A DNA stretch of 64,000 nt, from assembly GCA_024650005.2 (NCBI GenBank), contig CP122380.1, forward strand, positions 672,001 through 736,000, in the 5' to 3' direction. The notes below the pieces were generated by a model. That model did no database searches, was not told the origin of the DNA, and saw nothing but the letters and a program-made list of their open reading frames with translations. Shown piece by piece: positions 46,278 to 49,426 of this stretch. Source of the stretch: Candidatus Bathyarchaeum tardum. Its GTDB lineage: Archaea > Thermoproteota > Bathyarchaeia > Bathyarchaeales > Bathyarchaeaceae. A program made the translations under genes and the position numbers. Every line of letters begins with the position of its first letter. Positions within the stretch are counted from its first letter, which is position 1.

Positions 46278-46640
46278 ATGACTGATCAACACCCGCGAAT
46301 AACCCGCGAAAAGAAGACCATCAATAAAATGGTTCACATGTACTGCAAAGGAAAACATGACCCCCAAAAAAATGAATTGTGTACTAAATGCACAGAATTC
46401 TTGTCCTACGCTTACAAACGTCTAGATAACTGTCCTTTCCAAGAAGAAAAATCAACATGCGGAAAATGTCTAGTGCACTGCTACCAACCAGTAATGAAAG
46501 AAAAAGCAAAAAAGATTATGCGCTATTCCGGTCCGCGTCTGATTTACAAAAGCCCGATTTTGGCTTTGCATCACGTTTTTGATGGCCGCAAAAAACCATT
46601 AACATTAAAAGAATTAAAAGAGAAAAAACAGAAAAAATGA
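46278..46640 (+). CDS. YgbA family (nitrous oxide-stimulated promoter) protein
   Basis: REKKTI...YC, RLDNCP, CGKCLVHCY and MRYSGPR motifs. Confidence 0.88.
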   Translation: MTDQHPRITREKKTINKMVHMYCKGKHDPQKNELCTKCTEFLSYAYKRLDNCPFQEEKSTCGKCLVHCYQPVMKEKAKKIMRYSGPRLIYKSPILALHHVFDGRKKPLTLKELKEKKQKK

Positions 46641-46644
46641 TTGT

Positions 46645-46998
46645 TTGGTGGTTATGATTTTGGAAATAACAAAAGTAAACGAAACAGAAAGCAAACCAAA
46701 TCCTCACGGAGTGGATGTTCGTCCAATTTATGCCCATGAAAATGCACAAGTAATAGTTTTAACGCTAGCACCTGGTGAGTCGTTACGGCGCCACATAACT
46801 CCAGTTGATGTTTTCTTTTATGTTCTTAAAGGCAAAGGAACCGTAGAAATTGGGGACGAAAAAAAAGAAGTAGAAAAAGACTCCATCGTTCACAGTCCAG
46901 CAAAGATAGTGCACTGTTGGTATAACACATCCGATATGCCTTTGCGAATTCTAGTCGCTAAAACTCCAAAACCAACAGAGTCAACAATTATGCTTTAG
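46645..46998 (+). CDS. Cupin domain protein
   Basis: HITPVDVFFYVLKGKG and SPAKIVHCWYN motifs. Confidence 0.88.
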   Translation: MVVMILEITKVNETESKPNPHGVDVRPIYAHENAQVIVLTLAPGESLRRHITPVDVFFYVLKGKGTVEIGDEKKEVEKDSIVHSPAKIVHCWYNTSDMPLRILVAKTPKPTESTIML

Positions 46999-47996: not shown

Positions 47997-48416
47997 ATGA
48001 ATGAAAAAACACAAGACCTGCAAAGTTGTCCCCTTGATGGGGTTATAGACATAATCAGCCGGAAATGGAGTTTTTTAGTTATCAACACCATCGGTAACTG
48101 TGAAAAAATAAGGTTTAAAGAAATCCTCACCCATTTGCACAAGCTGAGTGCAAAGACTCTCTCTGAGACCCTCAAGAAACTTCACAGGGAAGGCTTGGTT
48201 AAACGGGAAGCCTTTTCTGAGATTCCTCCAAGGGTCGAATATTCTCTCACAGAAGAAGGAATCAGTTTATGGAAAGCAATAATTCCCCTTCTAAACTGGA
48301 CAATACAAAGAGGAACATCCTGCGGACAAAAAGAACTTCCAAAAACATGCAAATTATCCGAGGGTCAAAAAAAACTTGTGAATGACGGCTATTCTTCAGG
48401 AGGAAAAAAACTTTAG
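47997..48416 (+). CDS. HxlR family transcriptional regulator
   Basis: CPL...ISRKWS and EIPPRVEYSLTEEG motifs. Confidence 0.9.
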   Translation: MNEKTQDLQSCPLDGVIDIISRKWSFLVINTIGNCEKIRFKEILTHLHKLSAKTLSETLKKLHREGLVKREAFSEIPPRVEYSLTEEGISLWKAIIPLLNWTIQRGTSCGQKELPKTCKLSEGQKKLVNDGYSSGGKKL

Positions 48417-48743
48417 GTTACTTCATGTTCTTATGCGAAATATTGGCAACAAATGAAGTCCTAAATGCTTTAACGTTATAAAAAAGAAAAGAAATTATGT
48501 TTGGGTCAAAAAAACATGTGTAATTCGATTAATAACTGAAAAAAACTGTTATTATAATAAATTAACCTCAAATACTACTCTTATTTGTTTTTATGCTGTG
48601 AATTTCAGCATTTTTCTAATATTGGCTTATTTTAAATGTTTATTTTGAATATAATTGAGTTTTTAGCCAGATTTTTTTGTGCATAATTTTTATTTGATTT
48701 TTATGTGCATCATTTTCTAGGGCACTTACCGGAGGTGGAAGAT

Positions 48744-48809
48744 ATGGTGTTCGAAGAAGACGACTGGGATGATTGGGAAGAAGACGAAGGAGACGAAGAA
48801 GACTGGTAA
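48744..48809 (+). CDS. Acidic micro-peptide MVFEEDDWDDWEEDEGDEEDW
   Basis: GGAGGTG SD at 48731-48737, ATG 48744, TAA 48807-48809; below the ORF-track cutoff. Confidence 0.65.
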   Translation: MVFEEDDWDDWEEDEGDEEDW

Positions 48810-48853
48810 CTGCTCCAAAATATTGCGGCTCATCCCTTTAGGGGGAGGTGAAA

Positions 48854-48910
48854 ATGATGCCCAAAAAAGGAAAGAAAGACAAGAAATCAACCAAAGCAAA
48901 CAAAAAATAA
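48854..48910 (+). CDS. Basic micro-peptide (M)MPKKGKKDKKSTKANKK
   Basis: GGAGGTGA SD at 48844-48851, ATGs at 48854 and 48857, TAA 48908-48910. Confidence 0.65.
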   Translation: MMPKKGKKDKKSTKANKK

Positions 48911-49105
48911 AACAACATAAAAACCACAAGTTTTTTCATCATTTTTCTATTCAAGCCAAAAGAATGTTTTAATCACGTTGCATTCTTTTGGAAGAAACGA
49001 AACTGACTATAATGTGTGGCAACTAAGCAGAGGTTTTGTTTGGTAACATAAATCGGTCAAAAATCAACTGACAAAATATTTGACTTTTGATTTTAAGGTG
49101 TTTAG

Positions 49106-49426
49106 TTAAATTTTATTTTCTAGTGTTAGCCATTTTTTTGTAGCGTCGACTATGTTTTTGCAGTCGTTTTTAGTGAAGTCGTATTCGTCTGTGTCTGGTT
49201 TGTATGTTGCAAGGGCTTCGGCGTAGTTTTTTAGTTTTCCCATATTATATTCAAGAATTTGCAAATCATGAAGGGCGCTGGACTGCTTTTTTTCTTTCTT
49301 AATTAATTCCAAAATCTTGCTGGCAAATTTTTCCAAGGCTGATTCATCAAGGTTTTCCAGTTTAGTTCTGTTGTTCTGGTAAAGTTCAGCAACTTTTTTC
49401 ATGAATTCCTCAGATAATGTTGTCAC
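49106..49426 (-). CDS. Hypothetical helical protein
   Basis: 106 aa, GTG start preceded by GGAGG. Confidence 0.65.
   Translation of the reverse strand: MTTLSEEFMKKVAELYQNNRTKLENLDESALEKFASKILELIKKEKKQSSALHDLQILEYNMGKLKNYAEALATYKPDTDEYDFTKNDCKNIVDATKKWLTLENKI

Follow-up and report, generated by a model that had tools for sequence, protein, structure and literature searches.

Two Micro-Genes in an Intergenic Gap

The window analyzed here is a 64,000-nucleotide stretch of the Candidatus Bathyarchaeum tardum genome (contig CP122380.1, positions 672,001 to 736,000 of the forward strand), and the element in question is a pair of very small open reading frames (ORFs), ORF1 and ORF2, in a 689-bp gap at positions 48,417-49,105 of the window. 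The gap is bordered by the gene for an HxlR-type regulator (47997-48416, plus strand) and by a convergent gene for a protein of 106 amino acids (aa) (49106-49426, minus strand). A sequence-only reading of this DNA had proposed two tiny ORFs, each led by a Shine–Dalgarno (SD) sequence, which encode an extremely acidic and an extremely basic peptide. Both are present in the sequence, with the ATG of ORF1 at 48744 and not at 48745. The features described below lie on the plus strand unless stated otherwise.

ORF1 extends from its ATG at 48744 to a TAA ending at 48809 and would encode an acidic, Trp-ended microprotein of 21 aa (MVFEEDDWDDWEEDEGDEEDW). Translation bears out the composition given earlier, as 14 of the 21 residues are Asp or Glu and three are Trp. 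The peptide has no Cys, Lys, or Arg, a net charge of about -14.5, and the C-terminal tripeptide E-D-W. Its SD sequence, GGAGGTG (48731-48737), stands 6 nt before the ATG; the genome contains 123 copies of this heptamer, and in 56 cases a start codon follows 4-9 nt later. About 54 nt before the ATG there is a TATA/BRE-like box (TTTTTATTTGATTTTT, 48687-48702) whose position suggests a promoter.

ORF2 (48857-48910) follows a second SD sequence (GGAGGTGA, 48844-48851) and would encode a Lys-rich microprotein of 17 aa (MPKKGKKDKKSTKANKK). Its start is common to the orthologs, and the spacer between GGAGGTG and this second ATG is 6 nt, the same as for ORF1; an alternative start at 48854 adds one Met (MMPKKGKKDKKSTKANKK). 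The predicted peptide has a net charge of about +7 and is purely polar, without a hydrophobic segment. Two oligo-T tracts (T6 and T5, 48931-48946), which recur at the same place in the aligned loci, are a likely archaeal terminator, and transcription probably ends there. The G+C content is 0.44 across 48700-48899, which covers both ORFs, versus 0.215 to 0.33 in the segments on either side.

A 7-bp hairpin (CTC.TCCC / GGGG.GAG, 48829-48847) precedes ORF2. The small hairpin noticed earlier is thus real, but it does not merely abut the second SD sequence: its 3' arm overlaps that SD in the first four bases. A hairpin of 7-10 bp occludes the second SD in the minimum-energy fold of all six orthologs of the MPKKGKK type, and in none of the four other pair loci that were folded.

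Conservation and Selection

The 361-bp stretch around the pair was matched at E <= 1e-10 in 18 of the 24 other genomes of the genus, and there is a second copy in the same genome. An alignment of 18 loci (L010, L017, L020, and L023, which have no match to the start-of-ORF pattern, were dropped before counting) displays a fixed order of box, GGAGGTG, ATG, an acidic frame of 19-22 codons, TGG-TAA, a spacer, and oligo-T tracts; some loci have a second SD and a Lys-rich frame between the spacer and the tracts. The box CTTATTTGATTTT(T/C) is invariant in 15 of the 18 loci, the exceptions being the window copy, L014, and L018, and CTTATTTGA is carried by two other paralogs of the same genome. All insertions and deletions within the acidic frame are multiples of three. 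In the wider family described below the stop codon varies (TAA, TAG, or TGA), always directly after TGG.

Codon-level comparison, which the sequence-only reading had put forward as a check, showed that variation in ORF1 falls mostly on third codon positions. Among 11 ungapped 21-aa ORF1 sequences, out of 21 collected, the variable columns at codon positions 1, 2, and 3 number 4, 4, and 13. Pairwise codon differences comprise 148 synonymous and 214 non-synonymous changes, and 136 of the latter are swaps between Asp and Glu. ORF2 orthologs keep MPKKGKKGKKKSK despite synonymous changes among AAA/AAG, GGA/GGG/GGT, and AGT/AGC. At the level of sequence, ORF1 and ORF2 are thus confirmed as genes under protein-level selection.

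The acidic gene is also rare by composition. The 2.15-Mb genome contains 110,632 nested small ORFs of 10-60 aa. Asp and Glu make up 50% or more of the residues in 12 of them, and 10 of these 12 belong to four loci of the ORF1 type, each with an SD-like purine box before the start. In a pattern scan across relatives, a kind of check likewise proposed beforehand, the strict form SD-ATG-...-GAYTGGTAA was found in 16 of 25 genus genomes and nowhere in a reversed control.

Paralogs and Origin of the Window Copy

The genome has four acidic paralogs. Three of them end in Trp, and each of these has the promoter box, the SD, and the T-tracts: the window copy, a copy at 996355, and a further one at 1155554. 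The fourth (293316-293372) has a weaker SD-like box (GTGAGGTGG), lacks the promoter box, and ends in Asp. This second, Asp-ended paralog type (M.FEEEDDDWEEDDEDEDEDD-like) with a weaker SD was also seen at L066, L068, and L073. Other species of the genus are multi-copy too; one genome (G009) has five matches.

A check of synteny, another earlier suggestion, showed no conserved order around the window copy. None of 11 relatives that carry the gene for the 106-aa neighbor has a micro-gene within 1.5 kb of it, and the relatives' counterparts are syntenic with the copy at 996355 instead. The window unit is therefore a dispersed paralog whose promoter box and terminator were copied along with it. 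At 996355, here called the home locus, genes for a 248-aa and a 176-aa protein precede ORF1, and a convergent PEBP gene and then an HD-domain gene come after it. Across the genus, ORF2 is sometimes part of this locus. The home copy of this genome has lost ORF2, and the window copy keeps it. The window copy faces a convergent gene, and neither it nor the three other paralogs have a downstream target on the same strand.

Throughout the genus, the two genes ahead of the home acidic micro-gene encode very basic orphan proteins (248 aa, pI 10.3; 176 aa, pI 10.1); in this genome the two genes lie at 994674-996074 (L231:675-2072), 275 kb from the window. For the 248-aa protein, Pfam gave sub-threshold similarity to Cas2/PaaX_M and nothing else (E 0.009-0.11). 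Its structural model has a mean pLDDT of 60.7, with the first 80 residues below 50, and a central beta-alpha-beta-beta-alpha-beta unit. A Foldseek search of this model against the PDB returned no match at E <= 0.001, with Cas2 and PaaX among the weak matches (E 0.2-0.8). The protein may therefore have a Cas2/PaaX-like fold.

A Wider Family of Acidic Trp-Ended Peptides

Weak matches in other genera proved to be SD-led ORFs such as M.FEEEEWEEEEEWEEEEEEEW. For working purposes, the family can be defined as SD-led peptides of 15-50 aa with at least 60% Asp/Glu, interspersed Trp, and Trp as the last residue; ORF1, with the size and composition given above, falls within this definition. Of 20 loci derived by BLAST, 16 end in Trp, three end in Asp, and one is disrupted. 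A W-acid...acid-W-stop pattern occurred in 98 of 401 genomes of the class and in 54 of its 131 genera, with no matches in the reversed control.

A scan of GTDB at species level with the same pattern found at least 120 stretches. The matches listed come from Bathyarchaeia, Thermoprotei (including an Acidianus strain and a complete Thermogladius chromosome), Nitrososphaerota, Methanomethylicia, Brockarchaeota, Thermococcus, Aenigmatarchaeota, several Asgard lineages, and a few bacteria, a range that rests on the titles of the first 80 stretches. Among 125 distinct matches listed, 113 end in a stop codon and 12 in TGG, and 89 are frames of at most 80 aa. Most of the bacterial matches listed are the tail of a longer protein, LysW-like in Anaerolineae and mostly unrelated longer proteins elsewhere.

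Some matches of the scan belong to zinc-ribbon proteins. LysW-like proteins with acidic Glu/Trp-rich tails that end in Trp, where Glu is usual, were seen in Anaerolineae (L124, L135, L181-L183) and in Methanomethylicia (L146:6123-6407), where the protein matches Zn_ribbon_LysW with 30.2 bits against a cut-off of 27. Cysteine-bearing Thermoflexus proteins (L112, L164) also have acidic, Glu/Trp-rich, Trp-ended tails.

The expectation that gene callers would miss both genes, and that no described family would contain them, was borne out by all resources consulted. Pfam at E up to 10 returned no family for ORF1 and four relatives, NCBIfam returned no family match, and a PDB profile search with a 21-position alignment (A1) returned no matches. 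A literature search found no paper on such peptides, small-ORF lists in supplementary files being outside its scope. A profile search with A1 hit 12 of 201 genomes and missed known loci, which makes it too insensitive for a census. A search for homologs of a 46-aa Thermococcus member yielded 325 candidates, none of which scored, a blank that is expected for a low-complexity query. Similarly, a search of protein representatives with alignment A3 (five peptides hand-picked for a length of at least 30 aa) gave no proteins at E <= 0.001, which is a low-complexity blank and not absence. The acidic family is large, and no match to it was found in the literature, Pfam, NCBIfam, or PDB.

Link to ABCE1

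ABCE1, an Fe-S-containing ribosome-recycling ATPase, is essential and universal in archaea and eukaryotes. Unsupervised clustering of the neighbors of family loci brought out one dominant family, and this family is ABCE1. In 21 of the 29 loci of the class sample, the acidic ORF is followed on its own strand by the ABCE1 gene, aligned over its Fe-S N-terminus. Among the matches listed, this arrangement holds for 47 of 89 small-frame loci, with ABCE1 divergent in four more. The distance from acidic ORF to ABCE1 ranges from 5 to 499 nt with a median of 113 (a subset of 84 loci among the matches listed). Distances were taken over loci L076-L184, and adjacency was counted over all loci up to L224. 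The alignment of ABCE1 (A2) contains 24 of 25 full-length sequences, L118 being left out.

Among the genomic partners of the acidic ORFs, ABCE1 predominates and not ORF2, and a place directly upstream of ABCE1 is typical for the family, not universal. In this genome ABCE1 is encoded at 787342-789114, 66 kb from the window copy, and no acidic ORF was found within 600 nt upstream of it. One locus (L173) bridges both contexts, as it carries in order a basic PaaX-like gene, an acidic ORF, and ABCE1; its basic gene is a homolog of the 248-aa gene (29% identity, E 6e-22). In three Thermoprotei loci (L105, L118, L127) we observed a small zinc-ribbon gene, with two CxxC pairs and an acidic C-terminus, between the acidic ORF and ABCE1. 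A complex prediction for ABCE1 with a 35-aa family member (5 rows, no controls) gave no answer, with a score of 0.00, and speaks neither for nor against binding.

The Lys-Rich Partner

The pair of acidic and Lys-rich genes is present in 9 of 25 genus genomes (G000, G001, G007, G010, G016, G018, G020, G023, and G024) and, beyond the genus, in two genera of the same family (G025 and G036), in several different neighborhoods. From these sequences, it is a real and recurrent arrangement that is not obligate. Among the matches listed, 6 of 84 distinct family loci have a Lys-rich ORF on their own strand at a distance of up to 200 nt; the flanks predict about 0.6. Of these six, three belong to this genus, two lie upstream in loci with Asgard-type peptides (Hermod and an uncultured archaeon), and one comes from an unclassified uncultured archaeon. 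The other 78 of the 84 loci listed have the acidic ORF without ORF2.

Two further arrangements were observed. At the home locus of one genome (L017:1355-1625, G017), ORF1 has lost its start and frame, and the promoter box, the second SD, and ORF2 (MTKKGKKDKKSKKQAKE) are intact; this loss of ORF1 is the reverse of the commoner loss of ORF2. On two Thermococcus contigs (L133:547-684 and L117:4717-4896), a single ORF of 46-60 aa joins an N-terminal PPKKKK to an acidic, Trp-rich tail that ends in Trp. The fused ORF stands alone beside a MoeA-like gene, with no ABCE1 nearby.

The charge-complementary, co-expressed pair of the sequence-only reading is therefore upheld in part. What stands is that two co-oriented and conserved micro-genes lie between one promoter-like box and one T-tract region, and that the pair recurs in three genera; what does not stand is an obligate unit, given how often ORF2 is missing.

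Other Features of the Gap and Its Surroundings

The repeats described beforehand are both genuine. Two 21-nt direct repeats, identical at 19 of 21 positions (48670-48690 and 48696-48716), lie on either side of the promoter box. At up to 3 mismatches the window has two matches to the repeat, the first exact and the second with 2 mismatches, compared with 0.03 expected from 100 shuffles, none of which contained two or more. The second copy is absent from the aligned loci of relatives, and the repeat is therefore specific to the window copy.

Past the T-tracts there is an inverted repeat (48956-48966 / 48981-48991), perfect over 11 bp and extended to 12 bp by a G-U pair, with a 12-nt loop. No other helix is present in the centroid fold of 48720-48995. 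In about 8 of 13 relatives, as judged by eye, the same offset past the T-tracts is occupied by a hairpin that differs in stem sequence and is followed by a purine-rich run. RNAalifold found no consensus helix in the region after the terminator across 13 loci. This hairpin may serve the convergent gene. The 276-nt transcript 48720-48995 folds no better than shuffled sequences (z = 0.69). A scan of 48300-49200 against Rfam 15 at E up to 10 gave two sub-threshold matches at chance level and nothing else, the better being SNORD36 on the minus strand (20.5 bits versus a threshold of 30, E = 2).

Window proteins scanned around the gap include HxlR, CopD-like, Usp, CBS, Cupin_2, and YgbA_NO proteins and the unassigned 106-aa protein. 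Genes of the YgbA_NO (nitrous-oxide-stimulated promoter) family and of Cupin_2 stand in tandem at 46278-46998 and adjoin the genes for the CopD-like membrane protein and the HxlR regulator.

Proposed Explanation

Our preferred explanation is that the stretch is a small stand-alone transcription unit with a promoter box, two SD-led micro-genes, and an oligo-T terminator. ORF1 would be a member of an archaeal family of Glu/Asp peptides of 15-50 aa with Trp, mostly Trp-ended, whose usual site is just before ABCE1. In this genus the gene would have left ABCE1 and multiplied to four copies, of which the window copy kept the Lys-rich partner. The product of ORF1 is pictured as a disordered polyanion that acts in trans, a view favored by copies that stand alone, have multiplied, and carry a full set of signals. 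The peptide would be anchored to basic, nucleic-acid-binding surfaces by the side chains of its Trp residues and by the carboxylate of the last Trp. The neighbors, namely ABCE1, the basic proteins, and the Lys-rich gene, together with the fused Thermococcus form, point to such docking of a Trp-anchored polyanion. ABCE1 or the ribosome might be the ancestral target, joined here by the very basic proteins encoded at the home locus. The polycation encoded by ORF2 would bind or compete with the ORF1 product and so set the level of free polyanion, and the hairpin over the second SD would damp the output of ORF2. Every binding step and the cellular role are inferred, and we hold the explanation as a whole (a stand-alone unit, two peptides, and a trans-acting polyanion on basic surfaces with a Lys-rich partner) with moderate confidence.

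Known systems offer parallels of function. The ABCE1 NBD1 patch binds the tail of the archaeal stalk protein aP1 and the N-terminus of eIF3j/Hcr1, according to PMC7780240, and both are short acidic segments with key hydrophobic or aromatic residues; a conserved Trp in the acidic N-terminal motif of eIF3j is described in PMC2824034. Those segments are, however, parts of larger proteins with other domains, whereas ORF1 would give a free peptide, and Pfam and PDB searches found no sequence homology between them. The signal of Lto1 and the CIA TCR resembles ORF1 at its end, where an acidic residue precedes a C-terminal Trp whose carboxylate is free, and in having a functional tie to ABCE1 (PMC10245660 and PMC4523923). 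The Trp of Lto1, however, is the tail of a folded adaptor and the ORF1 peptide is a free 21-mer. The likeness to ABCE1 tail ligands and to the C-terminal-Trp Fe-S signal is thus best taken as a functional analogy.

Small disordered polyanions that bind basic partners by charge are known from eukaryotes, where DSS1/Sem1 (which contains Trp) and prothymosin-alpha with histone H1 are examples of 70-110 aa. They offer an oppositely charged disordered partner as an analogy, and an analogy only, for ORF2; the DSS1/Sem1 profile (PF05160) did not match ORF1 or four relatives in Pfam at E up to 10. To our knowledge, the archaeal accessory factors of ABCE1 are barely known.

Several observations weigh against the preferred explanation. 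ORF2 is intact in 7 of 17 assessable aligned loci, and elsewhere the region is recognizably decayed. None of the six Lys-rich loci among the 84 listed is linked to ABCE1. Because of these two findings, the pair is dispensable or lineage-specific. The genomes of the genus are related and hence are not independent samples. In many lineages the spacers before ABCE1 hold T-tracts and a TATA-like box, so that the acidic gene and ABCE1 may be separate units and their adjacency need not mean co-transcription; moreover, adjacency alone is no proof of binding. The census pattern itself requires a final Trp, which leaves the set derived by BLAST as the only independent support for it, and there are Asp-ended members, including one paralog of this genome. 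Because the sequences are of low complexity, homology between the D/E-W peptides of the genus and the ABCE1-linked E-W peptides cannot be shown statistically, and the proposed family link is drawn from composition, size, SD, terminal Trp, and synteny bridges. Transcription and translation of ORF1 and ORF2 are likewise deduced from sequence, as for the whole family.

Alternative Explanations

Two alternatives start from ABCE1. The peptide could be an Fe-S maturation adaptor that binds the basic Fe-S domain of apo-ABCE1 and offers its Asp/Glu-Trp-carboxylate to an Fe-S delivery factor, in parallel to the eukaryotic Lto1, whose Trp recruits the CIA targeting complex to Rli1/ABCE1. The adjacency to ABCE1 and the Asp/Glu-Trp ending of most members fit this idea, as do the eukaryotic signal [LIM]-[DES]-[WF]-COO- given in PMC10245660 and the use of a conserved C-terminal Trp by Lto1 for Rli1 maturation reported in PMC4523923. 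However, E-D-W fits the last two positions of that signal and not the first, where ORF1 has Glu at -3 in place of Leu, Ile, or Met. The genus also keeps four copies far from ABCE1, with some paralogs Asp-ended, and we regard the adaptor as rather unlikely. We know of no CIA targeting receptor complex in archaea. A second possibility is a translation sensor in cis, in which the acidic run destabilizes the ribosome and the Lys run stalls it, so that occupancy gates termination or read-through and, ancestrally, ABCE1 would be autoregulated by rescue capacity. Tight tandem adjacency to ABCE1, at the short median distance given above, and T-tracts right after the ORF would suit such a device, and PMC8092293 describes acidic, translation-aborting small ORFs that Salmonella uses as sensors. 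These mgtL-type leaders resemble ORF1 as short acidic-rich ORFs upstream of another gene, but they act in cis within one mRNA, and the paralogs here have no same-strand target downstream. In many cases the spacer provides ABCE1 with a TATA-like box of its own, and the conservation of composition, periodic Trp, and terminal Trp between phyla goes far past the needs of a stalling run. A difficult-peptide sensor may apply to the ABCE1-linked members but does not match the window copy; overall we consider it unlikely.

Other readings lie further from the data. A free version of a LysW/ArgW-like acidic tail, ligated at its C-terminus by an ATP-grasp enzyme, is brought to mind by the LysW-like proteins of the same scan in Anaerolineae, Thermoflexus, and Methanomethylicia, and by the very acidic, Trp-containing tails with which LysW and ArgW dock on basic enzyme surfaces. 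LysW, however, ends in a terminal Glu that is used for ligation, and ORF1 ends in Trp. It also lacks the zinc-ribbon domain (PF21344), with no Pfam match at E up to 10, so that the likeness is confined to a low-complexity tail; no lys or arg genes are nearby, and no ATP-grasp gene was seen among the neighbors scanned. We consider this very unlikely. There might also be no gene pair at all: the stretch could be a purine-rich non-coding RNA or DNA tract, the true gene could be a 67-aa ORF on the antisense strand (48726-48929, minus strand), or the ORFs could be what is left of the tail of a longer, decayed gene. A purine-rich plus strand leaves the antisense strand free of stops by composition, and relatives have antisense ORFs of 80-100 aa as well. 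Yet the 13 variable columns at codon position 3 of ORF1 fall on position 1 of the antisense frame, and because of this the antisense ORF is best seen as a by-product of the purine-rich sense strand. Conserved SD, ATG, and stop, an open frame around ORF1 of just 21-50 aa in relatives, the lack of an Rfam family at threshold, and a transcript no more structured than shuffles make this reading highly improbable.

Least probable of all is the toxin-antidote pair that had been offered as one option, with a toxic Lys-rich peptide that the acidic peptide neutralizes. Opposite charges, co-orientation, and a second gene damped by a hairpin over its SD would agree with it, but ORF1 occurs without ORF2 in most loci, ORF2 without ORF1 in one genome, and ORF2 has no hydrophobic segment, which leaves the option without support, the PADLOC library being outside the searches made. 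The usual marks of type I and type II toxin-antitoxin systems, obligate linkage and a membrane or enzymatic toxin module, were looked for and are missing, as the loci listed mostly lack ORF2 and its product is purely polar.

A more far-reaching reading can also be drawn. The Glu/Asp-Trp peptide might be an ancient, hitherto unrecognized archaeal cofactor of ABCE1 and a possible functional forerunner either of the C-terminal-Trp Fe-S targeting signal with which Lto1 serves Rli1 or of the eIF3j motif with its acidic residues and Trp. Bathyarchaeia and Asgard archaea would have joined it with the Lys-rich micropeptide and very basic proteins into a genetically encoded polyanion/polycation switch, which would adjust ribosome recycling or the supply of free nucleic-acid-binding proteins. 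This reading is speculative and rather unlikely.

Implications

Both peptides can be made chemically, and these ideas are therefore directly testable. The micro-gene is invisible to gene callers and to profile searches, and stand-alone relatives are found in Asgard lineages too. Free-standing and multiplied copies argue that the peptide itself is the active product, and not the act of translating it. If the gene is kept beside ABCE1 from Sulfolobales-type archaea and Bathyarchaeia to Nitrososphaerota, it would fill a gap in the known machinery of translation termination and recycling or of Fe-S maturation. The conserved Lys-rich partner gene suggests regulation driven by charge, through two gene products that rank among the smallest known.

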